A stretch of DNA of 64,000 nt from Betaproteobacteria bacterium Ga0077527 (GTDB taxonomy: Bacteria > Pseudomonadota > Gammaproteobacteria > Burkholderiales > SG8-41), in contig LNDW01000007.1 in assembly GCA_001464815.1 (NCBI GenBank), forward strand, positions 79,746-143,745, written 5' to 3'. This document shows, in pieces, positions 3,351 through 38,338 of the stretch. The position numbers and the translations under genes are program-made. The notes under the pieces were generated by a model. The model was not told the origin of the DNA. It was given only the letters and a program-made list of their open reading frames with translations, and did not search any database. Every line of letters starts with the position of its first letter. The stretch's first letter is position 1.

Positions 3351-3505
3351 TCCACGGCAAAGGCGCCGCGGATAAGCTCGAAATGAGCGGCCTGTTGCCC
3401 CTATAATCCTGAAGGTTGAAGTGAACGCTGTCGTGGCCAGGCCACAAGGCTGCGCGGGGTTCCGACCGTTTCGTGATGGCAGGGCCAAGCCGATCAGGGG
3501 GTTCC

Positions 3506-6500
3506 ATGAACAATAACAATGCCGCGCAAAAAAACCGTACTGCGAGCCGCAATCGCGGCCAGCGCATCCGCCCCAAAGCCGCCGCACTGGCCGTTGCCGC
3601 CTGCTTCAGCACTGTGGTCTGGGCGAACCCGACCAACCCGACAGTGGTTCATGGCAACGCGAGCTTCCAGCAGAATGGCAACATCCTCAACGTCACCAAC
3701 AGCCACAACGCGATCATCAACTGGGGTTCGTTCTCGATCGGTGTCAACGAGCTGACCAAATTCATCCAGCCCTCGGCGCTGTCGGCGGTGCTGAACCGCG
3801 TCACCGGCGGCGACCCCTCGGCCATCCTCGGCGCCCTGCAGTCGAACGGCCGCGTATTCCTGCTCAATCCCAACGGCATCGTCTTCGGCGCCGGTTCACA
3901 GATTGATGTCGCCGGCCTTGTTGCCTCCACCCTCAATCTTTCCAACGCCGACTTCCTCGCCGGGCGCATGAACTTCACCGGTGGTGCCGGCGCGGGTTCG
4001 GTGCTGAACCAGGGCGCGATCAACGCCGCCGGCGGCCCGGTCTATCTGGTCGGCAATGCGGTCACCAACCAGGGCATCATCACCAGCCCCGGTGGCGAGA
4101 TCGTGCTCGCTGCGGGCAACAGCGTGGAACTGGTCAATCCCGGCACGCCCAACCTGCGTGTCGAAATCCAGGCCACCAACAACGAGGCGCGCAACCTCGG
4201 CAGCATCGTTTCCGAAGCCGGCCGCATCGGCATCTACGCCGGCCTGATCAAGCAGGGCGGCGTGATCAACGCCGACAGTGCGGTGGTTGAGGGCGGGCGG
4301 ATCATGCTCAAGGCCACGCGGAATGCCACGCTTGAAGCGGGCAGCGTGATCAGCGCCAAGGGTGTGGGCGGTGGCCGCATCGAGGTGCTGGCCGATGACA
4401 GCACGCATGTCGCGGGAGTGCTTGATGCATCGGCACCCAACGGCGGCAACGGCGGTTTCATCGAGACCTCGGGCAAGATCAGGGTGACGGTGGATGACAA
4501 TGCCAGGGTCAGTACCGCGGCGCCCCAGGGCTCGACCGGTGTCTGGCTGATTGATCCGACCGATCTGCTCATCAGCGCAATGGGTGGCGACATGACTGGC
4601 GCTTCGATAGCCACCAACCTGGCGACAACCAGTGTCGTGCTGACATCCGACAACGGCAGCTCCGCGGGCAGCGGCGACATTCTGGTCAATGATGTGATTG
4701 CCTGGAATAGCGCCAACAGCCTGACGTTGACGGCGCGGCGCAATGTATCGGTCAACGGTTCGATCAGCAACGCGGGCAGCGGCGGCATTAATCTTTTTGC
4801 GGGATGGGATGGCTCCAGTTCCCCCAGTGCGCCCACATTGTCCAATCTGGGCATGATTTCGCTGATGAACAGCCTGTCAACCGCCGGCACCGTTCAGCTC
4901 AAGGCCAATGCGGATATCAACCAGAGTGCCTCCGGTGTGATTACCGCCGCCCAGCTCAAGGCGGTCAGCGGAACGGCATCGGTCAACCTGAACAGCGCAG
5001 CCAACAATGTGGGTGTCATCGCGGGTTCCGCGAAAAGCGAGTTCAACTTCAAGAACGCCGGCAGCCTGACGATTGGCAGCGTTGGCGCCGACAACGGCAT
5101 CGTCGTCACCAGCAACGGTAGCGCTCTGGTTGATGTGCATCTCAATTCCGGCGATCTGACGGTTAATCAGTTGGTGCAGGCTACGACCACCGGCCTCAGC
5201 AGCAGTGCCACGGTGGTTCTGCATGCGGACAATGGCAATGTCACCATCAACGCCCCGGTCAGCGCGGTTGCCGGAGGTGATACTTCGATAGATGTTTACG
5301 CCGCCAATAATGTAATCATCAACAGTTCGCTTTCAGCTACTTCCGGCCAATTAGGCGACGCCTTGATACAAGTCGAAGCTGCGGCTGGCAACATTGTGGT
5401 TGCTGGCACCGCGCAGATCGCAGCAGACGCATACGAGGGTGCCGCGGAGATTAATCTGCAGGCCGGTGGTGCCATTCAGCTTGGTGCTGGCACCAATCTG
5501 ATGGCTACAACCGACAACATTTATGGCGGCGATGAGGCTGATATCTATCTCACCGCAGCTGGCAACATCACCCAGAATGCGGGCATCACCGCCGACGGTG
5601 GTGAGCGCGGCGTGGTCTCACTGAACGCCGGCGGTGCCATTTTGCAGACCGACCCCCTGGGCTTCATCCGCGTGGTGGGCCCGAGCAATTCTTACTCAAG
5701 GTTGGATCTGACCGCGGTCAGCGGCATCGGCACCCGCGCCAATCCGGTGCGCATCAATATGGGTGCCGACCCTGACCTGACACCCTATAACACCGGCATG
5801 ACCGGTGACATCGCCCTGTCGTTCTTTAATACGCCTTCAAACCCCGCATACGCCGCGCTGGGCAACGGCCTGTTCATCGACAACGACCTGAACGGCGTCT
5901 ACAACAACAACCCCAACGGCATGTTCTACTTCAAGAGTGATGCCAACATCATCCTGGCCATCCCCTTCACGCCGGACGGGCAGGCCCTGCCTTCAGGCCA
6001 GAGCGTGGTCTTTGACGCGCCCAACGGGCAGATCCACATCGGGCAGCAGTTCGTTTATGACGGTTACTACGGCTATATGCCGACCGGCACCTACGGCAGC
6101 ATCAAGGCCGGTGTCGGTGGTGCCGGCAATGTCGAGCTGATTGCCGGCAACAAACTGACCATCCAGAACGGCTCATTCATCACCGGCCGCGAGCCGCTGA
6201 TCAAGGCCGGAGATATCGATCTACAGGGCGTGATCCGCGCCACTGACAGCAATTTCGGTTTTGTCGACCTCCGGCATGTCACCGGCGGTCCGATCCACCT
6301 CGGCGTCTCAGGCGCTGGTGTGGGCGGCGCGCTGGCGCTGGACAATGCCGAACTCAACCGGATGACACGCTGGGACGGCAGCGGCGATCCATTGACCTCC
6401 GGCTCGGGGGGCGGTTTGCTGATCGGCCAGACCACGGGTGGTCCGCTGATTTTCAAAGGGGCGGTGGGCCCAACCAGCGCCTTCCTCAACGCCCGCGGTT

Positions 6501-7756
6501 CTACGATCACGCAGGACAGTGGCGCCATCATCACTGGCGGGCTCAACGCTTCGGCCCAGACTTCGGTGATGCTGACCGACACCGGCAACCAGATCAATTA
6601 CATCACCGGTGGTCTGGCGAGCAGCGGTACCTTCAGTGTCGTCACCGCGGCGCCGGTCACTGTCGATTCGGTTTCCACGCCGGGTGGCAACATCAACATC
6701 GCCTCCAGCGGTGGCATGACCCTGCAGGGCCAGATCAACGCCGGCGCCGGCACAGTCCAACTGACGGCGAACAGCATTGCCGACAATCACGTCGGTCTCG
6801 ACATCATCGCCAACTCGGCATTGATAACCGCCACTGCGGGCGGCTCAATCGGGTCGATAGCCAATCCGCTGGAAACCTCGGTGCTGAGCCTGAATGTGAG
6901 TTCCTCAGGGGCCGCAGGGCAGGAGATCGGCGTCATCAATGCCGGCAACATGGCACTGTCCGGGTTTGATTTTGGCGGCTCGCTGGCTGCGATCGGTACC
7001 ACGGGGGTGATGAGTCTCAGTTCGCCGCTGACGGTGATGGGCAGCGGTCTGTTCCTTTCCGGCAACGCCGGTTTGAACCTTGTTGGCGGCAATGTCATCA
7101 ATGCCGCGGGTTCATTGACTCTCGCCTCTGGCAGCGGCGCATTGTCTGTCACCGGCGCTTCGGTCAGCGCAGGGGGCAGTCTGGGCCTGAGTGGCGCCAA
7201 TATCCAGATCAGCAATGCCACGCTCAACAGCGCCGGCATCACCACGGTCAACACACCGGGCAGCCTGAGTGTGATCAATGGCGCCCTGTTGTCGAGTTCG
7301 GGCAACATGAACATCGTCACCGGTGGCAACGTGCTGGTCGACCAGGCGCGGATTTTTGGCTCGCCCGATGTCGTGATGTCGGTGGGCGGCCTGATCAACA
7401 TCAATGGCACCCTGGTCCAGCCCGGCAAGATCGAGGCTGCATCGCTCAACACCATCCGGCTCGTGTTCCCAGGGCTCGCCCGCGGCGGATTCTCGATCAA
7501 CGGTGTCGAGGGCGTGGTATACGACGCCTCGACCAATACCGGCTTTTTCGCCGGCGGCGCGCCGGCGGTGCTCGGTGGCGGTCTGAAAGTCAGTTACGGC
7601 GCGGCTCCCGCCACCACCGCCGTGGTGCCGATCGATGCCCTGATCGTTGCCCTGGTGCAGGCCTCCAAGCCGCCCGACCAGCAAAGCAGCACCAACTCCA
7701 ACACTCGCGAAGACGACAAGAAGGACGCCAAAAAAGACGCTCCGGCCTGTCGCTGA
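3506..7756 (+). CDS. two-partner secretion exoprotein (TpsA; filamentous-haemagglutinin-type N-terminal TPS domain, long beta-helical repeat body)
   Basis: ATG at 3506 follows an AGGGGG RBS. Extended signal peptide (..AALAVAACFSTVVWA). TPS domain with NPNGIVFG and the preceding block VVHGNASF..NILNVTN...AIINW.SFSIG. Gly/Ala/Ser/Asn-rich repeats follow. The ORF track start at 3473 is less likely. Confidence 0.85.
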   Translation: MNNNNAAQKNRTASRNRGQRIRPKAAALAVAACFSTVVWANPTNPTVVHGNASFQQNGNILNVTNSHNAIINWGSFSIGVNELTKFIQPSALSAVLNRVTGGDPSAILGALQSNGRVFLLNPNGIVFGAGSQIDVAGLVASTLNLSNADFLAGRMNFTGGAGAGSVLNQGAINAAGGPVYLVGNAVTNQGIITSPGGEIVLAAGNSVELVNPGTPNLRVEIQATNNEARNLGSIVSEAGRIGIYAGLIKQGGVINADSAVVEGGRIMLKATRNATLEAGSVISAKGVGGGRIEVLADDSTHVAGVLDASAPNGGNGGFIETSGKIRVTVDDNARVSTAAPQGSTGVWLIDPTDLLISAMGGDMTGASIATNLATTSVVLTSDNGSSAGSGDILVNDVIAWNSANSLTLTARRNVSVNGSISNAGSGGINLFAGWDGSSSPSAPTLSNLGMISLMNSLSTAGTVQLKANADINQSASGVITAAQLKAVSGTASVNLNSAANNVGVIAGSAKSEFNFKNAGSLTIGSVGADNGIVVTSNGSALVDVHLNSGDLTVNQLVQATTTGLSSSATVVLHADNGNVTINAPVSAVAGGDTSIDVYAANNVIINSSLSATSGQLGDALIQVEAAAGNIVVAGTAQIAADAYEGAAEINLQAGGAIQLGAGTNLMATTDNIYGGDEADIYLTAAGNITQNAGITADGGERGVVSLNAGGAILQTDPLGFIRVVGPSNSYSRLDLTAVSGIGTRANPVRINMGADPDLTPYNTGMTGDIALSFFNTPSNPAYAALGNGLFIDNDLNGVYNNNPNGMFYFKSDANIILAIPFTPDGQALPSGQSVVFDAPNGQIHIGQQFVYDGYYGYMPTGTYGSIKAGVGGAGNVELIAGNKLTIQNGSFITGREPLIKAGDIDLQGVIRATDSNFGFVDLRHVTGGPIHLGVSGAGVGGALALDNAELNRMTRWDGSGDPLTSGSGGGLLIGQTTGGPLIFKGAVGPTSAFLNARGSTITQDSGAIITGGLNASAQTSVMLTDTGNQINYITGGLASSGTFSVVTAAPVTVDSVSTPGGNINIASSGGMTLQGQINAGAGTVQLTANSIADNHVGLDIIANSALITATAGGSIGSIANPLETSVLSLNVSSSGAAGQEIGVINAGNMALSGFDFGGSLAAIGTTGVMSLSSPLTVMGSGLFLSGNAGLNLVGGNVINAAGSLTLASGSGALSVTGASVSAGGSLGLSGANIQISNATLNSAGITTVNTPGSLSVINGALLSSSGNMNIVTGGNVLVDQARIFGSPDVVMSVGGLININGTLVQPGKIEAASLNTIRLVFPGLARGGFSINGVEGVVYDASTNTGFFAGGAPAVLGGGLKVSYGAAPATTAVVPIDALIVALVQASKPPDQQSSTNSNTREDDKKDAKKDAPACR

Positions 7757-7780
7757 TGTCCATCGCCGACCACCCCTCAA

Positions 7781-7807
7781 CCCGGCCACAAAAGCCGGGT
7801 TTTTTCT
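7781..7807 (+). terminator. intrinsic terminator between tpsA and tpsB
   Basis: cccggc-cacaaaa-gccggg stem followed by tttttt. Confidence 0.55.
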
Positions 7808-7933
7808 GGGGCGTGGCAAATAGGGTTGTGAATTCAGGCATTTGCTGGATTTTTTGGGCTCTTTTGCGATAATGCGATGACTTTGCGCAGTGCAGCGCGT
7901 AGCACCGGTAGCAGCATCATCAGGACTTCCGGC

Positions 7934-9541
7934 ATGATAAATTCATCAATAAAAACAAATACTTACATTGCAATTCTGGCGGCATCCCTGACTCTGCTGC
8001 CTACAGGCCTGCGAGCCCAGGATGCACCAGATACGGCAATTCCCGCCCCGCGCTTCGAGATTCGCAGTTTTGAAGTCACCGGCGACTCGATCCTGGGTGC
8101 CGAAACCGTGCAGCGCATCGTTTCCGCCTTCACCGGCACCCAGAAGGATTTTGGTGACGTGCAGCGCGCGTTGGAGGCGCTGGAGGCCGAATACCGCAGG
8201 CGCGGCTTTGGAGTGGTGCAGGTGCGCCTGCCCGAGCAGGACATCACGCGCGGGGTGGTGCGTTTCAGCATCAACGAGCCGCGGGTCGGCAGGGTCAATA
8301 TCGAGGGCAACCGGTTTTTCAGCAACACCAATGTGCGGCGTTCACTGCCTGCGGTGAAAGAGGGCGAGATACCCAATTCGCTTGCCATCGCGCGCGACCT
8401 GCAGATTGTTTCCGAACACCCGGTGAAGCAGACCAATGTGCTGCTGCGCTCGGGCGCGACCGAGAGCCAGGTTGACATCAATGTGCGCATCGCCGACGAC
8501 CGGCCCTGGCGCCTGCTCACCACGCTCGATGACACCGGCACCAGCGACACCGGCTACATGCGCCTCGGCCTGGGTTTCCAGCACACCAACCTGTTCGGCC
8601 TTGACCACTCCTTCTCGGCGCAGTACGTGACCTCGCCGACCAATCATGACCAGGTGGCGATCTACGGCCTGGGCTACCGCATTCCGTATTACCGGCTGCA
8701 CAGCACGCTGGACATGTTCGCCGGTTATTCGGATGTGGATTCCGGCACCGTGCAGGGGCTGTTCAATGTCAGCGGCAAGGGTTCGATCTTCGGCGCTCGC
8801 TGGAACTACCACCTGCCGAAGTGGGACGACATCGAGCATCGCGCCTTCATCGGTCTCGACTATCGCGCCTTCCAGAACAACGTGACCCTCGGCGGCGTCG
8901 GCTTCGTGCCGGACATCACCGTTCATCCGGTGTCGATCGGCTATGCCGGTCTTCAGCGCACCACCTACAGCGAATGGAATTTCAACGCCTCGCTGGCACG
9001 CAACATCCCCGGCGGCAAGGACGGCGACAGCGGCGATTTCAACCGCACCCGTACCGGCGCCAGCGCCACCTACACCATATTCCGTTTCGGCACCTCGTAC
9101 GTGCAGATCTTTGGCAAGGAATGGCAGGGCAGGGCCGCGTTGTCCGGGCAGTACACCCAGGACATGCTGGTGCCCGGCGAGCAGTACGGCATCGGTGGAT
9201 TCGACACCGTGCGCGGCTACCAGCCCCGTGAGGCCTCCAACGACAAGGGGCATGCGGTGCAGCTTGAAATCTACACACCGAACCTCGCTGACAAGGCCGG
9301 GATGTCCGACAAATGGCGGGCGCGGCTGCTCGGCTTCTACGACTTCGGTGATGTCAAACGCAACAATCCGCAGCCTGGTGAGCAGGCCGGCAAATTCCTC
9401 GCCAGCACCGGCATCGGTATGCGCCTCGCCTATGGCAAAACCGTCAGCCTGCGCCTTGATCTGGCACAGCCGCTGAAGGCCTTTGGCACCCGTCAGGTTG
9501 ATGACTGGCGGCTCAACGGTGCGCTGGCACTGGTCTACTGA
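7934..9541 (+). CDS. TpsB outer-membrane transporter (ShlB/FhaC/HecB family, POTRA + beta-barrel)
   Basis: Signal peptide MINSSIKTNTYIAILAASLTLLPTGLRA, a POTRA-like N-terminus (F.I..F.V.G...L) and a beta-barrel ending in an aromatic residue (..ALALVY). The start at 7934 is preferred over the ORF-track start at 7877. Confidence 0.85.
   Translation: MINSSIKTNTYIAILAASLTLLPTGLRAQDAPDTAIPAPRFEIRSFEVTGDSILGAETVQRIVSAFTGTQKDFGDVQRALEALEAEYRRRGFGVVQVRLPEQDITRGVVRFSINEPRVGRVNIEGNRFFSNTNVRRSLPAVKEGEIPNSLAIARDLQIVSEHPVKQTNVLLRSGATESQVDINVRIADDRPWRLLTTLDDTGTSDTGYMRLGLGFQHTNLFGLDHSFSAQYVTSPTNHDQVAIYGLGYRIPYYRLHSTLDMFAGYSDVDSGTVQGLFNVSGKGSIFGARWNYHLPKWDDIEHRAFIGLDYRAFQNNVTLGGVGFVPDITVHPVSIGYAGLQRTTYSEWNFNASLARNIPGGKDGDSGDFNRTRTGASATYTIFRFGTSYVQIFGKEWQGRAALSGQYTQDMLVPGEQYGIGGFDTVRGYQPREASNDKGHAVQLEIYTPNLADKAGMSDKWRARLLGFYDFGDVKRNNPQPGEQAGKFLASTGIGMRLAYGKTVSLRLDLAQPLKAFGTRQVDDWRLNGALALVY
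7947..7959 (+). repeat. AT-rich element copy 2 (CAATAAAAACAAA, 1 mismatch)
   Basis: Lies inside the first codons of tpsB (SIKTNTY). The flank tacttac matches copy 1 (tacttag). Confidence 0.8.
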
Positions 9542-16439: not shown

Positions 16440-17507
16440 TCATTCGTGGCGAATGATCGCCTTCGCCAGTGTGTTCACCGCGGGCTCGTCACAGCCGGCC
16501 AGGTTGAAGCGGGGTGCTTCAACAAGCCGCGGGTAGTGGCTGTCGATGGCACGGGTGTAGGCAGGGTCGTAGTGGCGGACGAGCAGTGCTTCGGTCAGTT
16601 CGCGCCAGCGGCCTTCGCGCGCCTGCGCCTGCCAGTCATTGATGGTCTCGCCGCCGTGCAGCGGGCGCAGGCAGTCGAGCTGGGCGTTCAGCGCTGCGGC
16701 ATCACTGACGAAATGGGTGTATTCGTCAATCAGCAGATCCACCCGCACCGGGATCGCGGCCTCGATCACCACGCAGCGGCTTTGCCACATCGCGGCGATC
16801 AGTTCGGGCGGCACCCGCAGCTGTCCGACCTTCTTGCTTTCGGATTCGACAAACACCGGCCGCTGCGATGACAGCGTCTTCAGCGCATGCCAGACCCGGC
16901 TTTCGAAGAGTTTCTGCGAGGGTTGCGGTTCATCGGGCAGGTTGCCGAGCACCGAGCCGCGGTGTGCGGCGAGCGCTTCGAGGTCGAGCACCTGTGCACC
17001 CTGGGCGGCCATCGCGCGCAGCACGCGGCTCTTGCCGGTGCCGGTCATGCCGCAGAGTACCCGCCAGTCAAAACGCGCGGGCAGGGTTTCCAGTTCGCTG
17101 ATCACTGTCTTGCGGTAGGTCTTGTAGCCGCCGCTGATGCGGCCGACCTGCCAGCCGATCTCCGCCAGCACATGCGCCATCGCACCGCTGCGCCCGCCGC
17201 CGCGCCAGCAATACACCAGCGGCTTCCAGTCGCGCGGTTTGCCGATGAACTGTTCACGCAGATGGCGGCCGATGTTGGCGGAAACCAGTGCGGCACCGAT
17301 CTTTTTTGCGTCGAACGGTGACACCTGCTTGTAGATGGTGCCGACTTCCGCCCGTTCCTCGTTGTTCAGTACCGGGCAGCTGATCGCGCCGGGAACATGG
17401 TCTTCGGCGTACTCGTCTTCCGAGCGTACGTCGATGATGGTATCGAAGCCGGCGAGTGCTTCGCTTGGGGCGACATCGGAAATGCGTGAGGGGCGCTGAT
17501 TGCTCAT
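16440..17507 (-). CDS. selU: tRNA 2-selenouridine synthase (rhodanese + P-loop)
   Basis: Rhodanese active-site CWRGGGRS, P-loop GMTGTGKS. The internal Met (MSNQRPS..) at 17507 avoids overlapping mnmC. Confidence 0.8.
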   Translation of the reverse strand: MSNQRPSRISDVAPSEALAGFDTIIDVRSEDEYAEDHVPGAISCPVLNNEERAEVGTIYKQVSPFDAKKIGAALVSANIGRHLREQFIGKPRDWKPLVYCWRGGGRSGAMAHVLAEIGWQVGRISGGYKTYRKTVISELETLPARFDWRVLCGMTGTGKSRVLRAMAAQGAQVLDLEALAAHRGSVLGNLPDEPQPSQKLFESRVWHALKTLSSQRPVFVESESKKVGQLRVPPELIAAMWQSRCVVIEAAIPVRVDLLIDEYTHFVSDAAALNAQLDCLRPLHGGETINDWQAQAREGRWRELTEALLVRHYDPAYTRAIDSHYPRLVEAPRFNLAGCDEPAVNTLAKAIIRHE

Positions 17508-17535: not shown

Positions 17536-19473
17536 TTAACCCGGCGCGTCCACCTTGCCGCGGCGTAATGCCTGCAGCAACTGCCGCGCCGGATCGAGGG
17601 CTGCGGCGAGTTCACGCTCCAGCGGCGGCGGTTCGCCGTTGGCCATGCAGGCGATCAGTTCCGCGGCGGGCACCGACCAGGCCAGGCCGCGCGAGCCGTA
17701 GCCGAAGGCACCATAAAGCTGCGGCTGGCGCGGCAGGTCCTGCAACTGTGCGCCGCGCAGTTCCTCGGCGCGGGCGATCGCGGCAGCGGTGTCGGGCATT
17801 GCACCGGCCAGCGGCAGGTGGTCGGGCGTGGAAACGCGGCTGCCGGTCACCGCATGCAGGTCGTCCTGCGGCAAGGCATGGCCGGTGACACGCTGCCAAC
17901 GTTGCAGGTTGTCGCGATGCGCTTCTGCAATCGAAGCCGCTGCTCCGCTGGCGTAATGACCGCCAAGCAGCAGGCGGCCATCGTCCAGCGTAAAGGCGTT
18001 GACCGCACCGGTCAGCGGCACTGCAGGCCGCCACGTACCCGGTGCTGACAGCAAAGTCTGCTGGCCGTGATTCATGCGCAGCGTGAATTCCGCGGGCGCC
18101 AGCCGCGCGGCGTCGGCGGCGTTCGCCAGCACCAGCGCTGCGGCACTGGCGATGACCTGTCCGGTGGTGTCAAGCGCCTGCCATTGTCCTGCGCTGCGCC
18201 TGATGCCGGCCACATGTTGCCCGCGGATCAGCCGGGTGCCGGCGTATTCCAGTTGCGCGGCGATCAGCGCGCGTGGTTCTACCCAGCCGCCAACGGCAAA
18301 CCACCAGCCGCCGTGGCGCAGGGGCAGGCCGCAGCGCGTGGATAATGTCGCGGCATCGAGGCTGCAGGCGTACTGCGGCGGCAGCGCAAGGCGTGCCACG
18401 GTTTCGGCCATGTTTGCGGCTTCGGCCTCATCCTCTGCAACCACGGCGAGACCGGTGCAATGTGCCTCGGGGTCATGCCCGGCATCAGTGAGCATCCGCC
18501 ATGCCGCCGCGGTGTGCAGAAAACCGCTGCGCAGCAGGCGCGACAGCAGCGCATCGTCCGGTGACAGGTGCGGGTGCAGGGTCGCGGCGCGGATTGCTGA
18601 AGCGCCGCCGGGCAGTGTGTCCGCGGCATCGATCAGCGTGCTTGTCCAGCCGCGCCGTGCAAACTGCTGGGCCACCGCCGCGCCGGCAATGCCGCCGCCG
18701 ATGATCAGCACTTCGCGTGCTGCGGGGGCCGTGGTGGCAGGATCGGCGGCCATCGTTCGCCACGCCGGTGGCCGGTACACCGCCTGCAGCCGGTGTTTTT
18801 TGCGGCCGAATCCCGGCTGGCGCTCCACCGCGAAGCCGGCACGGGTCAGACCTTCGCGCACCGCGCCGGCGGCGCTCCAGGTGGCGAGGGTGGCGCCAGC
18901 GGCGGCGAGGCGCGCGCATTCGCCGAATACGTTTTCACTCCACATCGCCGGATTACGCGCCGGCGAGAAGCCATCGAGATAAAAGGCGTCGAAGGGCCCG
19001 TCGAGTTTCGGCAGCAGGCTTTCGATGTCGCCGAAACACAGCGTCAGCAGCACCCGGTCCTCGGCCAGCCACAGCCGGTGCAGACCGGGGAGGGGCAGCG
19101 GCCATTGTGCGATCAGTTCGCGGCTCAGTGACGCAAGTTCAGGGTGATGGCCGTGGCTGCGCGCAAGGTCTTCCGCGCTCGCCGGATGTTTTTCGATGGA
19201 AAACAGATGCAGCCGCTCGCCGTGTGCCGGATCGGCGAGCCAGGCGGAGGCCGTGGCGAGTGTGTTGATGCCGAGGCCGAAACCGGTTTCGAGCACACGG
19301 AAAATGCGCCGGTCCGCCCAGCGCTGCGGCAGGCCGCAGCCGGTGATGAACACCGCCCTGGCCTGGGCCAGTGCGCCGTCGGCGCTGTGATAGACGTCGC
19401 CATAGTCCGCTGCGTACGGCGTGCCGTCTTCCAGCAGCGTGATGTGTGCGGCGGTGATGGTCGGGTTGTTCAC
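17536..19473 (-). CDS. mnmC: bifunctional tRNA (mnm5s2U34) methyltransferase / FAD-dependent cmnm5s2U34 oxidoreductase
   Basis: 645 aa. N-terminal SAM-methyltransferase part (..ETGFGLGINTL.., FYLDGFSPA.NP.MW). C-terminal DAO-type FAD domain (IIGGGIAGAA). GTG start. Confidence 0.85.
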   Translation of the reverse strand: MNNPTITAAHITLLEDGTPYAADYGDVYHSADGALAQARAVFITGCGLPQRWADRRIFRVLETGFGLGINTLATASAWLADPAHGERLHLFSIEKHPASAEDLARSHGHHPELASLSRELIAQWPLPLPGLHRLWLAEDRVLLTLCFGDIESLLPKLDGPFDAFYLDGFSPARNPAMWSENVFGECARLAAAGATLATWSAAGAVREGLTRAGFAVERQPGFGRKKHRLQAVYRPPAWRTMAADPATTAPAAREVLIIGGGIAGAAVAQQFARRGWTSTLIDAADTLPGGASAIRAATLHPHLSPDDALLSRLLRSGFLHTAAAWRMLTDAGHDPEAHCTGLAVVAEDEAEAANMAETVARLALPPQYACSLDAATLSTRCGLPLRHGGWWFAVGGWVEPRALIAAQLEYAGTRLIRGQHVAGIRRSAGQWQALDTTGQVIASAAALVLANAADAARLAPAEFTLRMNHGQQTLLSAPGTWRPAVPLTGAVNAFTLDDGRLLLGGHYASGAAASIAEAHRDNLQRWQRVTGHALPQDDLHAVTGSRVSTPDHLPLAGAMPDTAAAIARAEELRGAQLQDLPRQPQLYGAFGYGSRGLAWSVPAAELIACMANGEPPPLERELAAALDPARQLLQALRRGKVDAPG

Positions 19474-19595
19474 GATGGGGGGCTGCGGTGCCTCGTCAAG
19501 CCGGGGTGGTTATGTTACGTTTGCCACCGCCTGAAGAATCGTTTTTCAGGCGTTTCATTCGAAAAACGAGCATTCGAAAAAATCAGGTCACCACG

Positions 19596-20654
19596 ATGAG
19601 CGACAAACCCGACACCGCACCCCTCCGCCTGACGCAGTTTTCCCACGGCGGTGGGTGAGGCTGCAAACTGACGCCAGCGTTGCTGAGCGAGGTATTGTCG
19701 CAAACCCCCGCGGCCCTGCCGTTCAAGGACCTGCTGGTGGGCAACGAGTCGGCTGACGACGCGGCGGTGTATCGCCTGAATGATACGCAGGCGATAGTCG
19801 CCACCACGGACTTCTTCATGCCCATCGTGGATGATCCCTACGATTTCGGGCGCATCGCCGCGACCAACGCGATCTCCGACGTGTATGCGATGGGCGGCAA
19901 GCCGTTCATGGCGCTGGCGCTGCTCGGTTTCCCGGTGGGCAAGCTGCCGATGGCGGCGGCGCAGCGCATCACCGCCGGCGGCCAGGCGGTCTGCACGCAG
20001 GTCGGTATTCCGATTGCCGGCGGCCATTCGATTGATGCGCCCGAGGCGATCTACGGCCTGGTGGTGCTGGGTCTGGTGCATCCGGACCGCGTCAAGCGCA
20101 ACGACCGCGCGCAGGCCGGCGACGTGCTGATCCTCGGCAAGGGGCTGGGTGTGGGCATCATGAGTGCCGCGCTGAAAAAGGGCGAGCTGCACGACAAGGC
20201 CTACCAGCAGATGATTGAATCCACCACCAAGCTCAATACGCCGGGCGCGCAGCTCGCCGAAATGCCCGAGGTGCACGCGCTGACCGACGTCACCGGCTTC
20301 GGTTTGCTCGGGCACCTGCTGGAAATCTGCCGCGGCTCGAAACTTTCCGCGCAGCTCGATTCGGCGAAGATTCCGGTGCTTTCCGCGGCGAAATTTCTGG
20401 TCGAGCAGGGTTTTGTCACCGGTGCCTCGGACCGTAACTGGCAGAGTTATGGCCACGATGTGCGGATGCCGACGGGTGACACGACGAACCTGCGCAAGCT
20501 GCTTACCGACCCTCAGACCAGCGGCGGCCTGCTGGTGGCCTGCGCGCCGCAGGCGGCTGAAGCGGTGTTGAACCGTTTCCGCGCCGAGGGTTTTGCCGAT
20601 GCCGCGGTGATCGGCCGGATGGAAGCGGGCGCTGCCCAGGTGAAGGTGGTCTAG
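19596..20654 (+). CDS. selD: selenide, water dikinase (selenophosphate synthetase), Sec-containing form; in-frame UGA at 19656..19658
   Basis: Reading from the ATG at 19596 gives MSDKPDTAPLRLTQFSHGGG-U-GCKLTPALLSEVL.., colinear with E. coli SelD [20 protein letters not shown], where the aligned residue is the catalytic Cys17. The ORF track only reports the part after the TGA (19680..). Confidence 0.85.
19672..19689 (+). other. candidate SECIS-like hairpin downstream of the selD UGA
   Basis: CGCCAGC-GUU-GCUG(A)GCG: a 7-bp stem with one bulged A and a G/U-containing loop, starting 13 nt after the UGA. The structure was folded by eye only. Confidence 0.3.
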
Positions 20655-27845: not shown

Positions 27846-28034
27846 ATGGGTAACCCGAAAGATCAGGTTCAGGCGCTGCTGCAAAAACTGCCTGAAGACG
27901 CGAGTTACGAAGACATCCAGTACCACCTCTATGTTCTGGAGAAAGTGCAGCGTGGTCTGTTGCGTGCGGATTCGGAAGGTACTGTCGAACACGCGGAGGC
28001 CAAAGGGCGTCTCGGCAAATGGCTCGCGTCCTAG
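27846..28034 (+). CDS. putative antitoxin of a type II TA pair
   Basis: 62-aa acidic protein. A GGAGG RBS precedes the ATG at 27846. It overlaps the downstream ParE/RelE-like gene by 16 nt. A TATAAT box lies at 27773..27778. Confidence 0.5.
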   Translation: MGNPKDQVQALLQKLPEDASYEDIQYHLYVLEKVQRGLLRADSEGTVEHAEAKGRLGKWLAS

Positions 28035-28330
28035 TCTGGTCCCCTGAGGCGATTGAAGACGCCGAGAAGATTGCGGCTTACATTGAGCACGATTCGCCCT
28101 GGTATGCGAAAGCGGTGATCTCAAAGATCGTCGAGACGGTTGAAGCGATTCCTGATTATCCCGAGATGGGGCGGGCGGTTCCAGAATTGGGTGATGTGGC
28201 TGTTCGTGAGTGTTTTGTGCATCGTTACCGCGTTATTTATCGACTCGATGCGGCGCGAATCCTGATCGTTGCGGTGATACATGGTCGGCAGGATTTTTCC
28301 CCGATTCAAAGCCGGATGGCTGGCGATTAA
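28019..28330 (+). CDS. type II toxin, ParE/RelE family
   Basis: 103 aa with a ParE/RelE-like pattern (..W...A..D...I..YI...SP..A......I......L...P..G......G......V..Y.VIYR.....I.I..VIHG.). Confidence 0.7.
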   Translation: MARVLVWSPEAIEDAEKIAAYIEHDSPWYAKAVISKIVETVEAIPDYPEMGRAVPELGDVAVRECFVHRYRVIYRLDAARILIVAVIHGRQDFSPIQSRMAGD

Positions 28331-31356: not shown

Positions 31357-31950
31357 TTAATCGCGCCCGCTCTGCGCCAGTTCTTCCCGCGTATTGATAT
31401 TGCGGAATGCCGCTTCATCCGCAAACTGTACTTCCACGACCTTCAGCTGCGAATACCACATGTCGATCTTACGGCCACCGCTTTCCAGAAAAGCGGTCAG
31501 GCTCGGCAGCACAGATGTCTTGCACAGGCTGAACACCGGATGCGGCTGGTCGCCGGTCTTGGCGACGGCAAGTTCGGCGTTGTTGGCGTCGAGCGCGGCC
31601 TTGAGTTGCGCCACCAGGTCCAGTGGCAGGAAGGGTGAGTCGCAGGGCGCGGTGACCACCAGCGGATGCGCGGCTTCGCTCAGGCCGCGATGCAGGCCGG
31701 CCAGCGGGCCGGCGTAGCCGCCGATGGCGTCAGGGATGACTCTGTATCCAAGTGCTTGATATTGTTCAATATTTTGATTGGCGTTGATCAGCAGTTCGTC
31801 GACCTGCGGGGCGAAGCGTTCGATGACGTGCTGCGCCATCGGTTTGCCGCGCAGCAGCTGCAGGCCCTTGTCGACGCCGCCCATGCGCCGGCCCTGGCCG
31901 CCGGCGAGTAATACGCCGGTGATTCCGGCTGTCGTCCCCGTCATGGTCAT
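31357..31950 (-). CDS. mobA: molybdenum cofactor guanylyltransferase
   Basis: MTMTGTTAGITGVLLAGGQGRRMGGVDKGL.. with the canonical LAGG..RRMGG.DK motif. The start overlaps the fdhD stop (ATGA). The longer ORF-track version is rejected. Confidence 0.85.
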   Translation of the reverse strand: MTMTGTTAGITGVLLAGGQGRRMGGVDKGLQLLRGKPMAQHVIERFAPQVDELLINANQNIEQYQALGYRVIPDAIGGYAGPLAGLHRGLSEAAHPLVVTAPCDSPFLPLDLVAQLKAALDANNAELAVAKTGDQPHPVFSLCKTSVLPSLTAFLESGGRKIDMWYSQLKVVEVQFADEAAFRNINTREELAQSGRD

Positions 31951-32786
31951 GCAATGAGTGTGCGCGTCACCGGCTTCACAAAACGCTCGCGGCCAGTGAA
32001 CAGCAGGTAGTGCTTGTTGACGGCGCGGCCGATCATGGTGATGCCGGTGCGCAGTGCGACGTCGTGGCCCATCTGCGTGAGGCCGGAGCGCGACACCAGG
32101 AAGGGGATGCGCATCTGCGCGGCCTTGATCACCATTTCCGAAGTCAGGCGGCCGGTGGTGTAGAACACCTTGTCCGAGCCGTCGATGTCTTCCAGCCACA
32201 TCAGGCCGGCGATGGCGTCCACCGCGTTGTGACGGCCGACGTCTTCAACGAAGTGCAGGATTTCGGCGGTGTTCTCGTTGACCGCGGCGAGCGCGCAGCC
32301 GTGTACGGCGCCGGCGCTTTTGTAGATGGTTTCGTGGCGGCGCACGGCGTCGAGCAGGGCGTAGAGGCCGGCTTCGGGCAGGCGCACGTCATCGCGCAGT
32401 TTGATGCTGTCGATTTCTTCCATCAGGTCGCCGAACACCGTGCCCTGGCCGCAGCCGGTGGTGACGGTGCGCTTGCTCATTTTCTGCGTCAGGTTTTTCA
32501 CGCGTTTGCGTGTGGTGACGGCGGCGGAATCGGTTTCCCAGTCCACCTGCACCGCGGCGATGTGGTCGACCGACGGCACCAGGCGCTGGTTGCGCAGATA
32601 ACCCAGCACCAGCGCTTCGGGGTTCTGGCCCAGGGTCATCAGCGTGACGATCTCGCGCTTGTCGAGGTAGATCGTCAGCGGATGTTCGCCGGCGATGGCT
32701 GTGGATTCGGCTTCGCCGTGCTCGTTGATCGATTCGACTTCGACAGTGAGCGGGCGGGTGGCGCGGGTGATTTCGGGTTTGGTCAC
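31947..32786 (-). CDS. fdhD: formate dehydrogenase accessory sulfurtransferase FdhD
   Basis: 279 aa with FdhD family blocks (..GCGQGT.FG.., EDVGRHNA.D...G). Confidence 0.85.
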   Translation of the reverse strand: MTKPEITRATRPLTVEVESINEHGEAESTAIAGEHPLTIYLDKREIVTLMTLGQNPEALVLGYLRNQRLVPSVDHIAAVQVDWETDSAAVTTRKRVKNLTQKMSKRTVTTGCGQGTVFGDLMEEIDSIKLRDDVRLPEAGLYALLDAVRRHETIYKSAGAVHGCALAAVNENTAEILHFVEDVGRHNAVDAIAGLMWLEDIDGSDKVFYTTGRLTSEMVIKAAQMRIPFLVSRSGLTQMGHDVALRTGITMIGRAVNKHYLLFTGRERFVKPVTRTLIA

Positions 32787-32817
32787 GATTCCGGGCTGAG
32801 TGGTATGACTTCAGCAG

Positions 32818-32856
32818 CCCCTCACCCTAACCCTATCCCCGCAAGCGGGGAGAGGG
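32818..32856 (-). repeat. REP-like GC-rich hairpin element, copy B (inverted orientation)
   Basis: cccctcaccctaaccct + atccccgcaagcggggagagggg, which is the reverse complement arrangement of copies A and C. Confidence 0.75.
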
Positions 32857-32878
32857 GATGGATTTGAGGCTGGGCGGG

Positions 32879-33913
32879 TCAGCCGCCGATGTAGGACATC
32901 TCGATCTTTTTCAGCGGTATGGTGTTCTTGCCGCGGATTTCTGAATAACGGTCTTCGCGGGCGGACCACACGCTGCCGATGCGGGCGATGATTTCGTCAT
33001 CGCTGGCGCCGCCGCGGATCAGGCCGCGCAGGTCGTGGCCGCTGGTGGCGAAGAGGCAGGTGTAGAGCTGGCCTTCGGTGGAGATGCGGGCGCGGGTGCA
33101 GTCGCGGCAGAAGGCCTGGGTGACGGAGGCGATGACGCCGATTTCGCCGCGGCCGTCCTTGTAGCGCCAGCGTTCGGCGACTTCGCCGGTGTAGTTGGCG
33201 TCGGCGGGTTCCAGCGGCATTTCACGCGAGATGGTATCGACAATTTCGCGCGCGCTGACCACATCGTCCATGCGCCAGCCGTTGCTGGCGCCGACATCCA
33301 TGTATTCAATGAAACGCAGGATGTGGCCGCGTTCGCGGAAAAAACGCGCCATCGGCAGGATGCTGTGTTCGTTGAGGCCGCGCTTGACGACCATGTTGAT
33401 CTTGACCGGTGCGAGGCCGGCGGCTGCGGCGGCATCGATGCCTTCAATCACTTTTGCTACCGGGAAGTCGACGTCGTTCATCGCCTTGAATACGGCGTCA
33501 TCCAGCGAGTCGAGGCTGACGGTGATGCGTTTGAGGCCGGCGGCACGCAGGGCCTGGGCTTTTTTGGCGAGCAGCGAGCCGTTGGTGGTCAGCGTGAGGT
33601 CGAGGCCGGGGATGGCGGCGAGCTGTTCGATCAGCTTCTCGACGTTGCGGCGCACCAGCGGTTCGCCGCCGGTGATGCGGATTTTTTCGACGCCGAGCCG
33701 GGTGAACAGTTGCGCGACGCGGGTGATCTCTTCGAAGGACAGCAGCGCCGAGCGTTCGAGGAACTGGTAGTCCTTGCCGAAGGTTTCTTTCGGCATGCAA
33801 TACACGCAGCGGAAGTTGCAGCGGTCGGTGATCGAGATGCGCAGGTCGCGCAGCGGCCGGCCGAGGCGGTCACGGCTGGCGGTGTCGGGGGCTGCGGTGA
33901 GTGGTGCGTTCAT
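32879..33913 (-). CDS. moaA: GTP 3',8-cyclase MoaA (radical SAM)
   Basis: [10 protein letters not shown] radical-SAM motif, C-terminal CxxCxxxR..(CRDCTRAR), GG tail. Confidence 0.9.
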
Positions 33914-34000
33914 GCTGGCGGCTTGCGGGTCTTCCAGAGCTGCCGATTATGGCTTTCGGCCGGAGCAGGTGCAACCAAGCCCCTGGAAGACAATACTTGC
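33914..34000 (-). promoter_or_regulatory. structured moaA 5' leader; candidate Moco riboswitch
   Basis: A 9-bp helix GUCUUCCAG/CUGGAAGAC (33983..33991 pairs with 33929..33937) encloses CUGC..GCAG and GGC-CGAAA-GCC hairpins. The blocks CUCCGGCC, CUGGAAGA and CCCGC..GCC occur in the same order as the Moco-motif blocks I recall (CUCCGAGCC, CUGGAAAGG, CCCGCC). No covariance-model search was run. Confidence 0.35.
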
Positions 34001-34062
34001 GAATCAGGTATTTAGCGCATTGCGCTGTTGAATGGCCCGCGCCCCTGGCGCAGAATGCGCGC

Positions 34063-34575
34063 ATGTCGAATCTTCCCGAAGATGTTCCCGCAGCCCTCGC
34101 CACGCGCTGGGCGGCTGCGGTGATCATGGAGCGTGTGCCGCTCGAAAACCGCTGGGCCAGCGAGCGCTGGGAGGCCAGGGGCGTGGTGCCCGACCTCAAG
34201 CCCGGCGCCGTGCCGCAGGTGATTGTTGATACGCCGGAGCGCCGCCAGATACTCCACAGCGGGCTGGCGGTGACGCTGCAGCGTGACGAGGCCGAGGGTT
34301 ATTACATGAACATCACCTCGCCAGAGCCCAAGGTGTTTGTGATGTGGCGGATGGAAGAAGAGCAGGCGGTGCCGGCGGGGTTGACGGTGAGTTATCACGA
34401 AGGTTCGCGCTGGCTCGACAGTGGCGAGTCGGTGGATGGTGTGCCGTTGCCGGTGGAGCTGGTGCCGTGGCTGGCGGCGTATTGCGAGCAGCATTACCAG
34501 CCCGAACCCCGGAAAAAACCGAAATACGCGACCAACAAAGATAAAGGTCGCATGGGCAACTGGCGTCCTGACTGA
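34063..34575 (+). CDS. DUF3305-like protein (FDH-cluster associated, function unknown)
   Basis: 170 aa from the ATG at 34063. I recognise the family only by its typical context upstream of a DUF3306 gene and a multi-cluster ferredoxin next to fdh genes. Confidence 0.6.
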   Translation: MSNLPEDVPAALATRWAAAVIMERVPLENRWASERWEARGVVPDLKPGAVPQVIVDTPERRQILHSGLAVTLQRDEAEGYYMNITSPEPKVFVMWRMEEEQAVPAGLTVSYHEGSRWLDSGESVDGVPLPVELVPWLAAYCEQHYQPEPRKKPKYATNKDKGRMGNWRPD

Positions 34576-34586
34576 TTCATAAAAAA

Positions 34587-34631
34587 CTCCCTCTCCTGCC
34601 TGGGCGGGAGAGGGTTGGGGTGAGGGTAGGG
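34587..34631 (+). repeat. REP-like GC-rich hairpin element, copy C
   Basis: ctccctctcc-tgcctgggc-gggagaggg followed by ttggggtgagggtagggg. Confidence 0.75.
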
Positions 34632-34649
34632 GATTCATTCAAAACTGAC

Positions 34650-35243
34650 ATGTCCGCTTCAGAGGAAAAGCCGTCTTCCGGGGAAGAATTTCTTTCCCGT
34701 TGGTCACGGCGCAAACAAACCGCTCGCGCTGAAGAACAGCAGCCGCCTGCTCCGGCCCCAGCACGTCCTGCAGTAGCCGATGCGCCGCCGGTGCTGCCGC
34801 CGCTGGATTCCCTGACTCCGGATTCCGATTTCACCGGCTTCCTGCACCCGAAGGTGGACGAGGGCCTGCGCCGCGCCGCACTGAAAAAACTGTTCAGCGA
34901 TCCGCACTTCAATGTGATGGACGGGCTGGATATCTATATTGATGATTATTCGAAGGATGATCCGATCCCCGAGGCGATGATGAAGGAGCTGCGTCACGCG
35001 CAGGACATCCTGAAGGCATCGCGCGAACGGCGGGAGGAAGAGGCCCAGAGGGAAGCCCTGCGCGAAGCGCAGCGCCGGCGTGAGGCCGGATTGCCGCCGG
35101 AAGACGGGGAGCCAGCCCAGGTCGCTGCGCTGGCAGACGATTCGCCGGAGCTGCCGCAAGCACTGGCCGAGGCGGCACCCGATGCTGTTGTGCCCCTGCC
35201 GGCTGAAGCAGAAGCCGAAACCAACCCTGTAAAACGCGCCTGA
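34650..35243 (+). CDS. DUF3306-like protein (FDH-cluster associated, function unknown)
   Basis: 197 aa. The N-terminus ..FLSRWSRRK.. and the low-complexity acidic/Arg-rich body match my recollection of the family. Context as for the DUF3305-like gene. Confidence 0.55.
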   Translation: MSASEEKPSSGEEFLSRWSRRKQTARAEEQQPPAPAPARPAVADAPPVLPPLDSLTPDSDFTGFLHPKVDEGLRRAALKKLFSDPHFNVMDGLDIYIDDYSKDDPIPEAMMKELRHAQDILKASRERREEEAQREALREAQRRREAGLPPEDGEPAQVAALADDSPELPQALAEAAPDAVVPLPAEAEAETNPVKRA

Positions 35244-35272
35244 ACCGCGCAGTCATCCGAAACGGAAAGCCC

Positions 35273-37354
35273 ATGCGCAACAAAACCCTGCTCTGCAATT
35301 GCAACCGCACCATGAGTGTCGATGGCAAGGCCGTCGCCGCCGCGCTGGGCGAGGGTAACAACCCGCCGAAAGTGCATGACGCGCTGTGCCGGCAGCATCT
35401 GGCTGCTTTCGAGGCGGCGGTGAAGTCCGGGGATGATCTGCTGGTGGCCTGCACCCAGGAGGCGCCGCTGTTCGGTGTGCTGCATGAGGAACTGGGCGGC
35501 AAGGGCGCGATCCGTTTTGCCAACATCCGAGAAAACGCCGGTTGGTCGGCGCAGGGCAAGCAGGCCGCGCCGAAAATGGCGGCATTGCTGGCGGCGGCAG
35601 ACCTGCCCGATCCGGAACCGGTGCCGACGGTGGATTACGAGGCGGGCTCGGAGCTGCTGATTGTCGGCCCCGGCGCGGTGGCGCTGCCCTGGGCCGAGCG
35701 GCTGGCGGAGGCGCTGTCGGTGACGGTGCTGATCACCGATGACGCACGTGATGCCGAGCTGCCGGCCGAACGCGGTTATGCGGTGGTCTCGGGCGCGGTG
35801 GAAAAACTCGAAGGCCATCTCGGTGCCTTCGAGGTGAACTGGAAGCAGCACAATCCGATTGATCTGGAGGCCTGCACGCGCTGCGGCGCCTGTGTGCGTG
35901 CCTGCCCCGAACAGGCGATCAGCACGGCGCTGCAGATCGACATGGAGCGCTGCAAGTCGCATCGCAGCTGTGTTGCTGCCTGCGGTGATGTCAAAGCGAT
36001 CGATTTCAACCGCGTCGATGCCTCGCGTAATGAACGCTTTGATCTGGTGTTTGATCTGTCCGATCCGCCGCTGATCCGCCGCTCGCAGCCGCCCCAGGGA
36101 TACCTTGCGCCGGGCCGCGATCCGCTGGAGCAGGCACTGGCCGCGGCGAAGCTGCCGCAGCTCAGCGGCAGCTTCGAGAAACCGAAATTCTTCAATTACA
36201 AGGAAAGCCTCTGCGCCCATGCGCGCTCGGGCATCACCGGCTGCACGCGCTGCATCGACGTCTGTTCCACCGGCGCGATCAGCAGCCTGCTCAAGGAAAA
36301 CCGCGTGGTGGTTGATCCGCACCTGTGCATGGGCTGCGGCGGCTGCGCCACGGTCTGTCCCTCGGGCGCGATGACCTATGCCTGGCCGCGGGTGGCCGAT
36401 GTCGGGCTGCGCATCAAGGCCATGCTCAAGGCCTATGCCGCTGCCGGCGGCAAGAATCCGCGCCTGTTATTCCATAACGGCGGGGATGGCCGCACGCTGA
36501 TCGCGAAGCTGGCGCGTAGTGGTACGGGCTTGCCGGCAGACCTGATTCCGGTGGAAGTGCTGCACGTCGCCACGGTCGGGCTGGACCTGATGCTCGGCGC
36601 GGTGGCGCTGGGTGCGGCGCAGGTGGTGGTGCTCGCGGCGGGCTCGGAGGCGGAGGAATACACCGCGGCGCTGTCGGTGCAGATGGCGCTGGGCGAGGAA
36701 ATACTCGGCGGCTTCGGTCTGGGTGCAGGGCGCCTGCAATTGCTGGCTGTGGATGATGCCGCAGCAGCAGCGGCGCGTATCGCGGCCCTGCCGGTCGTGA
36801 ACGCGCTGAAGGCGGCGGGTTTCAACCTCGGCAACGAAAAACGCACGACGCTGGATTTTGTATTCGATCATTTTGCCGAGCTTTCGGCGGCAAAGCCGGC
36901 GGTGATCGCGTTGAAGGGTGGGGCGCCGTTCGGCGGGCTGGAGGTCAACAAGGACAAGTGCACCTTGTGCCTGGCCTGCGTCGGCAGTTGCCCGGAAGGG
37001 GCGCTGCTTGATTCCAAGGAAACGCCGGCGCTGCGATTTATCGAGCGCAATTGCGTGCAGTGCGGATTGTGCGTACGCACATGCCCGGAACAGGCGATCA
37101 CCCTGCAGCCGCGACTGCTGGCGGGCACTGCGGCGAAGCAGCCGGTGACGCTCAACGAGACCCAGCCCTTTGCCTGCATCAAATGCGGAAAACCCTTTGG
37201 AACCAAGCAGATGGTCGATGGCATGATCAGCAAACTCGGGCAGCATTCGATGTTTTCTCAGCCCGGTGCGCTGGACCGCATCAAGATGTGCGCGGACTGC
37301 CGGGTGGTCGATCTGCTGCAGAACGCGCAGCACGGGAACATCCTCGATACGTAA
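35273..37354 (+). CDS. large multi-[4Fe-4S] ferredoxin-domain protein
   Basis: 693 aa with several CxxCxxCxxxCP motifs (CTRCGACVRACP, CTRCIDVC..., CMGCGGCATVCP, CTLCLACVGSCP, CVQCGLCVRTCP). Confidence 0.8.
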   Translation: MRNKTLLCNCNRTMSVDGKAVAAALGEGNNPPKVHDALCRQHLAAFEAAVKSGDDLLVACTQEAPLFGVLHEELGGKGAIRFANIRENAGWSAQGKQAAPKMAALLAAADLPDPEPVPTVDYEAGSELLIVGPGAVALPWAERLAEALSVTVLITDDARDAELPAERGYAVVSGAVEKLEGHLGAFEVNWKQHNPIDLEACTRCGACVRACPEQAISTALQIDMERCKSHRSCVAACGDVKAIDFNRVDASRNERFDLVFDLSDPPLIRRSQPPQGYLAPGRDPLEQALAAAKLPQLSGSFEKPKFFNYKESLCAHARSGITGCTRCIDVCSTGAISSLLKENRVVVDPHLCMGCGGCATVCPSGAMTYAWPRVADVGLRIKAMLKAYAAAGGKNPRLLFHNGGDGRTLIAKLARSGTGLPADLIPVEVLHVATVGLDLMLGAVALGAAQVVVLAAGSEAEEYTAALSVQMALGEEILGGFGLGAGRLQLLAVDDAAAAAARIAALPVVNALKAAGFNLGNEKRTTLDFVFDHFAELSAAKPAVIALKGGAPFGGLEVNKDKCTLCLACVGSCPEGALLDSKETPALRFIERNCVQCGLCVRTCPEQAITLQPRLLAGTAAKQPVTLNETQPFACIKCGKPFGTKQMVDGMISKLGQHSMFSQPGALDRIKMCADCRVVDLLQNAQHGNILDT

Positions 37355-37466
37355 GGATGTTGTCAGTATCAGTTGCTCATGGCGTCAGATGAGAATTACT
37401 ATCGTTTGATGCTAGTTTTGTTGTGGAAATTTGCCGGGCTCAGTCATAAGATAGGCAAGATTTCAC

Positions 37467-38108: not shown

Positions 38109-38136
38109 TATTTCGATCTTGCCTGAGGAGGACGCC

Positions 38137-38328
38137 ATGAACAGCAAAATGAACCGCCGCAAGTTTCTCGCAGCAGTCGGTGTTGGTGGAGCGGCTGCAG
38201 CAGCAGCAGTGACCCAGGTTGGCGGCGAGCGCGAACGCAGCGCCGAGGCAGGGCAGAAGGTGCGCCAGGGCCAGGGCTACCAGGTGACCGAACACGTGCG
38301 CCGCTACTACGAAACCACCAAGGTCTGA
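38137..38328 (+). CDS. small twin-arginine-signal protein of FDH regions (formate dehydrogenase region TAT target)
   Basis: 63 aa: MNSKMNRRKFLAAVGVGGAAAAAAV... A GAGGAG RBS lies 6 nt upstream. Only visible as an internal start of the ORF-track entry 37957..38328. Confidence 0.7.
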   Translation: MNSKMNRRKFLAAVGVGGAAAAAAVTQVGGERERSAEAGQKVRQGQGYQVTEHVRRYYETTKV

Positions 38329-38338
38329 GGAGAACATC

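Follow-up and report, generated by a model that had tools for sequence, protein, structure and literature searches.

In bacteria, selenophosphate synthetase (SelD) constitutes the second most widespread selenoprotein family according to the literature, and the occurrence of selenocysteine (Sec) in SelD itself is documented: it was described by Zhang 2006 (PMC1794560), selenophosphate synthetase was recorded as a selenoprotein in 383 organisms (Peng 2016, PMC5029168 Table S3), and the SelD of Haemophilus influenzae is listed among predicted selenoproteins with the remark that SelD "can be a selenoprotein itself" (PMC1242214). These sources agree with a preliminary description of the locus treated here, which had stated that Sec-containing SelD variants are known, for example from Haemophilus. 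The self-dependence of such an enzyme was likewise stated by Zhang 2006 (PMC1794560) for species which possess ybbB (selU) and in which SelD is the sole selenoprotein; the autocatalytic dependency of SelD is already published and is not a new idea. In the same survey, FdhA was the only selenoprotein in Betaproteobacteria.

The closest counterparts of the present locus, which lies in a 64-kb stretch of DNA that was analysed as a whole (hereafter the window), are the Sec-containing SelD proteins of Haemophilus influenzae, Photobacterium profundum, Geobacter and clostridia. These belong to the same family, carry UGA in place of Cys17 in the glycine-rich loop, and, as in the window, feature a SECIS hairpin within the open reading frame immediately downstream of the UGA as well as frequent linkage to ybbB/selU. 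The window differs in that its host is an uncultured betaproteobacterium and in that its predicted hairpin, with the loop GUU and a bulged A on the 3' side, is specific to its clade, while the mechanism would be no different. With Escherichia coli SelD (PDB 3u0o) the window protein shares the motifs SHG.G[C/U]GCK, DDAAVY, TTDFF, NAISD and TDVTGFG. However, the E. coli enzyme features Cys17 and GCKI and its gene is devoid of a SECIS, whereas the window gene has UGA, presumably read as Sec, followed by GCKL and by a hairpin formed by the codons after the UGA. The SECIS elements of E. coli fdhF and fdnG resemble the hairpin of the window as stem-loops inside the open reading frame 3' of the UGA, with a loop that begins with G and then U about 20 nt away and with a single bulged base in the upper stem. 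They differ from it by a GGUC loop instead of the three-nucleotide GUU and by a bulged U on the 5' arm rather than an A on the 3' arm, and SelB binding is putative in the case of the window. The same logic, i.e. a Sec-dependent selenophosphate synthetase in need of its own product, applies to mammalian SPS2 and archaeal SelD, which differ by a eukaryotic or archaeal SECIS in the 3' UTR and by another pathway of Sec synthesis.

The selD frame and its public annotation

The selD gene of the window (Table 1) most likely encodes Sec at the catalytic site by means of an in-frame UGA, as judged from its sequence and that of its relatives. Translation of the frame yields MSDKPDTAPLRLTQFSHGGG*GCKLTPALL..., in which the TGA is the sole internal stop between the initial ATG and the terminal TAG at 20652-20654. 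With Cys put in place of the TGA, the 352-aa product matched the NCBIfam SelD equivalog NF002098 with 526.4 bits (cutoff 299), query residues 8-351 covering profile positions 4-346 of 347, and TIGR00476 with 433 bits (cutoff 125). Moreover, the structure of E. coli SelD was matched with an E value of 5e-101 over residues 10-342 of the window protein. Since query residue 10 is aligned with residue 6 of the 3u0o chain, the TGA at codon 21 falls on Cys17 of SHGAGCGCK, opposite which the window reads SHGGG[U]GCK with the Lys of GCK present, and the motifs DDAAVY, TTDFF, NAISD and TDVTGFG are identical or conservatively replaced between the two proteins. Cys17 is the selenide-binding residue of SelD, and a C17S mutant is catalytically inactive (PMC3956282). 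The product hence belongs to the SelD family by equivalog scores above the cutoffs, by the glycine-rich loop with Cys/Sec17 and Lys20, and by the Asp motifs for ATP and metal binding of the AIRS type. The preliminary description had read the gene as a selD with an in-frame UGA at the catalytic Cys and had proposed an alignment of the joined translation with SelD families; the single frame of 352 codons, the position of the TGA on Cys17 in 3u0o and the end-to-end equivalog match bear this reading out.

Table 1. Positions of the selD locus and associated features in the window
Feature	Position	Strand	Basis or remark
mnmH (selU/ybbB), tRNA 2-selenouridine(34) synthase	16440..17507	-	NF008752 488 bits (cutoff 266)
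mnmC, bifunctional tRNA mnm5s2U34 methyltransferase/oxidoreductase	17536..19473	-	NF002480 665 bits (cutoff 540); Pfam Methyltransf_30 and DAO
Conserved intergenic motif CCTCGTCAAG..GGGG..GTTRTGTTA between mnmC and selD	19496..19524	.	Shared by the window, L004, L153, L165 and L206
selD, selenide,water dikinase (selenophosphate synthetase), 352 codons, predicted Sec at codon 21	19596..20654	+	Single frame; profile and structure matches
In-frame TGA, predicted to be read as Sec, aligned with the catalytic Cys17 of E. coli SelD	19656..19658	+	Alignment with 3u0o
Lower, extended part of the predicted SECIS helix, less conserved, register shifting between relatives	19660..19701	+	Fold
Apical hairpin of the predicted SECIS, CGCCAGC-GUU-GCUG(A)GCG	19672..19689	+	Fold and comparison
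TTG, false start of public gene calls; product without the glycine-rich catalytic loop	19695..19697	+	Public calls
Formate dehydrogenase operon	31947-43262		Alpha subunit 38339-41272; Cys codon TGC 38954-38956

In gene lists, the N-terminal part of this frame is consistently lost. The mechanical list of open reading frames gives only 19680..20654 with a TTG start, and the public gene call on the contig of the window begins at TTG 19695 and comprises 319 aa, as the preliminary description had in essence noted when it regarded selD as cut short in the ORF track; precisely this 319-aa product is recorded from 8 contigs. The source contig is 153,891 bp long and comes from the metagenome of an activated-carbon filter for drinking water (ENA ERZ922821); the JGI contig AADWTP_10000583 is near-identical. 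Most of the best 120 SelD matches in the protein database (P0001-P0120, 78-99% identity) are 316-324 aa in length and begin after the TGA, and the Sec-SelD clade as a whole appears to be systematically mis-called, its N-terminus missing from the predicted proteins.

Conservation of the UGA and the predicted SECIS hairpin

The 125-nt 5' region of the gene, including GGG-TGA-GGC, is identical across five independent assemblies from different runs. TGA is also the commonest stop codon of the window, where it ends 33 of 47 genes; a reassignment of TGA as in genetic codes 4 or 25 is therefore ruled out, and read-through at selD must be local. Among the best 80 SelD loci from species-representative genomes, seven (L001-L004, L012, L031 and L072) carry TGA at the same codon, while the other 73 have TGC or TGT, so that the count with the window included amounts to 8 TGA versus 73 TGC/TGT. 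The four nearest loci (L001-L004, 70-76% identity) all stem from betaproteobacterial or Burkholderiales metagenome-assembled genomes and all have TGA. In a neighbour-joining tree, the window, L001-L004, L012 and L031 form one clade, which stands apart from the Cys-type SelD proteins of Betaproteobacteria.

A scan of metagenomes with the pattern His-Gly-Gly-Gly-TGA-Gly-Cys-Lys returned 119 loci, 107 of which are genuine selD genes whose SelD sequence resumes past the TGA. Codons -10 to -5, which lie outside the search pattern, are kept as R/K-L-T-Q/E-L/F-S/A with up to six synonymous codons, and the Leu of this stretch is invariant across 101 distinct sequences. Since synonymous codons vary while the peptide ahead of the TGA is kept, the upstream frame must be translated and under purifying selection, and the UGA is thus flanked on both sides by coding conservation, by which bacterial selenoprotein genes are recognized. 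One relative with 82% identity (L206, VFQM010004275.1, GCA_006365135.1; protein P0005) has CGA (Arg) at L206:2318-2320 instead of TGA, and shares an identical downstream hairpin with its sister L165 (VFQN01001523.1), in which the codon is TGA. The CGA constitutes either a real Sec-to-Arg variant, which would probably be inactive, or an error of base calling or consensus.

Bacterial SECIS elements lie 16-37 nt from the UGA, and contacts of G23/U24 and of a bulged U are known from fdhF (bSECISearch, fdhF literature). At 19672-19689, just 3' of the UGA, the window features a hairpin of this kind with a G early in the apical loop, composed of seven pairs and one bulge; its loop, G19679 U U, is separated from the UGA by 20 nt. 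This hairpin forms the top of a longer helix, whose lower part is paired differently in each relative, namely AACU/AGUU in L001, AAUU/AAUU in L002 and AAACU/GGU.AUU in the window. The preliminary description had called it a possible but weak SECIS-like hairpin. The weakness holds for the folding energy, given that single-sequence folding reached z scores of only -0.6 (57 nt), -1.1 and, for the 34-nt core, -2.2 (7 of 200 shuffles as good), so that thermodynamics alone cannot carry the claim; comparison with relatives, on the other hand, supports the hairpin well. Across 50 distinct sequences of the hairpin class of the window, 95.4% of cells are paired, as against 11-62% after displacement of the 3' partner by 1-3 columns in the same sequences. 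Variants of the two arms change jointly and together with the encoded amino acids, as in ACGCC..GAGCG (Thr..Ser), CCGCC..GGCGG (Pro..Ala) and CCCGC..GGGGG (Pro..Gly), the second of which gives a continuous 8-bp stem with the register shifted by one.

Other Sec-SelD clades feature unrelated hairpins at the same place, for instance AGCACC-GUC-GGUGCU, GGUCC-GGN-GGACC and CCCAA-GGUC-UUGGG, whose loops (GUC, GGC/GGA or GGUC) all begin with G and lie at the same distance from the UGA; conservation of a G within the apical loop is known from bacterial SECIS elements (PMC1794560). When a hairpin in the MFE fold was required to have at least 5 bp, a loop start 18-27 nt from the U of the UGA and a G in the first two loop positions, it was present in 56 of 71 Sec-type as opposed to 13 of 73 Cys-type orthologues, and most of the 15 Sec-type failures hold the same hairpin sequence, which is out-competed by an alternative fold. 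In addition, the local MFE is lower in Sec-type than in Cys-type genes (-11.1 versus -8.3 kcal/mol, Mann-Whitney p = 6e-7) despite the lower GC content of the former. Formal covariation within the close clade is slight, with one pair (columns 27/42) changing from GC to CG in 4 sequences of a set preselected for a shared loop. RNAalifold on 50 clade members recovered only the top four pairs, with no pair changed on both sides, and not the lower helix, which shifts register between relatives and is hence unscorable on a gapless alignment. Rfam searches, whether at gathering or at permissive thresholds, yielded no SECIS match but only a spurious miRNA (E 3.8), which is uninformative because Rfam may hold no model for this element. 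Overall, the assignment of the hairpin as a predicted SECIS is well supported by these comparisons.

Probable Sec decoding and alternative readings of the UGA

What is observed at the locus is its anatomy, i.e. the protein family, the position and conservation of the UGA, the selection acting upstream of it, the conserved hairpin and the mnmC-mnmH neighbourhood. Very probably, this selD is functional and inserts Sec at the UGA of codon 21 by means of the downstream hairpin and SelB, and its selenophosphate serves MnmH as well as SelA. Accordingly worded as a sequence of steps, translation would begin at ATG 19596, and the hairpin 3' of the UGA would recruit SelB·GTP·Sec-tRNA(Sec), whereby Sec enters the catalytic position. 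The full-length SelD would then convert selenide and ATP to selenophosphate, which could be passed to the neighbouring MnmH (SelU) for the synthesis of 2-selenouridine in tRNA and to SelA for the formation of Sec-tRNA, including the Sec needed by SelD itself.

The decoding machinery was searched for by Pfam and NCBIfam profiles on the approximately 47 genes, ARAGORN, and tblastn searches of the window and all loci with the SelA and SelB proteins of E. coli. Neither selA, selB nor tRNA-Sec was found in the 64-kb window, in the approximately 10 kb of contig past each window end (approximately 20 kb, hence approximately 84 kb in total) or in the sequence flanking the seven Sec-type genome loci. 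From the window and the adjoining contig, the machinery can therefore only be inferred: selA, selB and selC would be encoded elsewhere in the genome, and Sec insertion would depend on SelB. In another clade, a Sec-type selD (L133, a contig of the SAMEA5043665 co-assembly) is adjoined by tRNA-SeC, selA and selB, and this is the only fetched Sec-type locus that links selD to the full Sec machinery; selA-selB also lies beside selD in several Cys-type loci. A scan of the window for other TGA-interrupted genes, at thresholds which also missed selD, gave only antisense artefacts and one gene junction.

Among the alternatives, the one which survives best, though still very unlikely, is that the UGA is read through with an amino acid other than Sec, either with Cys carried on tRNA-Sec under selenium limitation or with near-cognate Trp, Cys or Arg, full Sec decoding having been lost or never possessed. 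The unobserved Sec machinery, the CGA codon of L206 above an intact hairpin and the Cys form of the formate dehydrogenase (FDH) in the window would all suit this reading. Simple suppression, however, would have no need for a conserved G-first hairpin of the SelB type at the canonical distance, and general suppression would be costly where TGA is the main stop codon; the physical linkage of a Sec-type selD to tRNA-SeC, selA and selB in L133 and the documented status of the SelD family as a selenoprotein likewise argue for Sec.

Less credible is a nonsense mutation, by which the gene would be a selD pseudogene, or an error of sequencing or assembly. Gene callers do take the TGA as a stop, and no Sec machinery is visible in approximately 84 kb of contig. 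Yet the sequence recurs unchanged in the five independent assemblies, and the TGA occupies the same codon in more than 100 orthologous loci, ranging from 59% (protein match at the DNA level) to 99% identity (database relatives starting after the TGA), with selection at the protein level on both flanks. Apart from the TGA, the gene is intact and scores over its full length against the equivalog, and neither frameshifts or relaxed selection nor TGA-free versions in the same population were seen; moreover, a nonsense mutation would not recur at one catalytic Cys codon, nor would it bring along a conserved hairpin.

Equally remote is a start after the TGA, at TTG 19680 or 19695, which a GAGG-like stretch a few bases ahead of TTG 19695 and the public call at this codon might suggest, but which would yield an N-terminally truncated enzyme without the glycine-rich loop, Sec/Cys17 and Lys20, and which conflicts both with the 20 codons upstream of the TGA that are kept as protein across clades amid synonymous variation and with the relatives that show GAAGTTCTG or GAAATTCTT in place of GAGG and TTG. 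A start at or after 19680, which the preliminary description had named as a finding that would speak against its interpretation, is hence contradicted by the conservation of these 20 codons. An autoregulatory internal restart at TTG 19695 was also considered and was dropped, since relatives conserve neither the TTG nor the GAGG ahead of it. Even when pseudogene, internal start and non-Sec suppression are taken together, their joint probability is small.

Genomic neighbourhood and selenium use

The mnmC-mnmH pair is oriented divergently (head-to-head) from selD, with mnmH two genes away and mnmC in between. The start of mnmH is that of the public 355-aa call (Rhodanese and AAA_SelU domains), while the mechanical open reading frame extends to 17615. 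In the metagenomes, mnmH adjoins selD in 63 loci with the Sec-codon pattern (65 MnmH matches before removal of two copies of the window's own contig), in agreement with the report that selD and ybbB generally occur together (PMC1794560). The window thus holds selD along with an adjacent ybbB/selU, the gene combination that marks the selenouridine utilization trait. Owing to the head-to-head arrangement of selD with mnmC-mnmH, selenophosphate presumably feeds the synthesis of tRNA selenouridine by MnmH, which consumes this compound.

The intergenic motif between mnmC and selD is possibly a shared promoter or operator, and a match to the sigma-70 consensus was not found in this intergenic region. 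At 19528-19552 and 19555-19585, the same region contains an 11-bp inverted repeat followed by T's as well as a direct repeat of two copies of CATTCGAAAAA; both repeats are absent from L206 and L165, in which no sequence aligned to that part.

The only other gene of the window from a classic selenoprotein family is that of the FDH alpha subunit, which has Cys (HQARICHS) where selenoprotein FDHs carry Sec, so that the window combines a Sec form of SelD, as predicted, with a Cys form of FDH. The operon comprises fdhD, moaA, a DUF3305 gene, a 693-aa polyferredoxin, a TorD-like chaperone and the alpha, FDH3-type beta and gamma subunits, the last of which has a long N-terminal extension. A remnant SECIS after the Cys codon was considered and rejected, since the long hairpin predicted there is no better than those of shuffled sequences (z -0.8). 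It is conceivable, albeit doubtful, that Sec decoding in the clade of this selD is kept solely or mainly for SelD, which would serve the adjacent MnmH in a closed, self-dependent loop; this idea is based on approximately 84 kb of genome, in which FDH is already of the Cys form, and was proposed earlier for other ybbB-containing species (Zhang et al. 2006, PMC1794560).

Near the FDH operon, a cluster for molybdenum/tungsten cofactor synthesis and oxyanion transport spans 47096-57344 and encompasses moeA, PBP-like regulators and binding proteins, two sets of ABC transporter genes, mobB, moaD and moaE, a content that would fit a metal supply dedicated to FDH. Next to moaE, moaD and mobB lies a stretch of approximately 1.9 kb (58031-59890) with very high third-position GC and long open reading frames on both strands, namely 619 aa on the plus strand (public call) and 351 aa on the minus strand (GC3 0.92); no Pfam domain was matched by the minus-strand frame, and the record of the public plus-strand call lists none either. 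Elsewhere in the window, a two-partner secretion pair at 3473-9541 consists of a TpsA-like exoprotein of 1427 aa that carries a TPS domain and, after it, a TpsB transporter of the ShlB/FhaC type, and at approximately 27846-28330 a small gene of the ParE toxin family follows a 62-aa open reading frame, likely as a toxin-antitoxin pair (public gene calls).

Our understanding of Sec decoding is left unchanged by this selD. What is modestly new is taxonomic, i.e. a coherent and environmentally common clade of betaproteobacterial SelD proteins with predicted Sec and a hairpin variant of its own. The chief value lies in the correction of the annotation: calls of approximately 316-324 aa without the catalytic loop would be mistaken for a defective enzyme, and truncated selD calls would make the count of the selenoproteome too low. 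The organism from which the window derives probably makes use of both selenium traits, namely Sec and, by virtue of the adjacent mnmH, selenouridine in tRNA.
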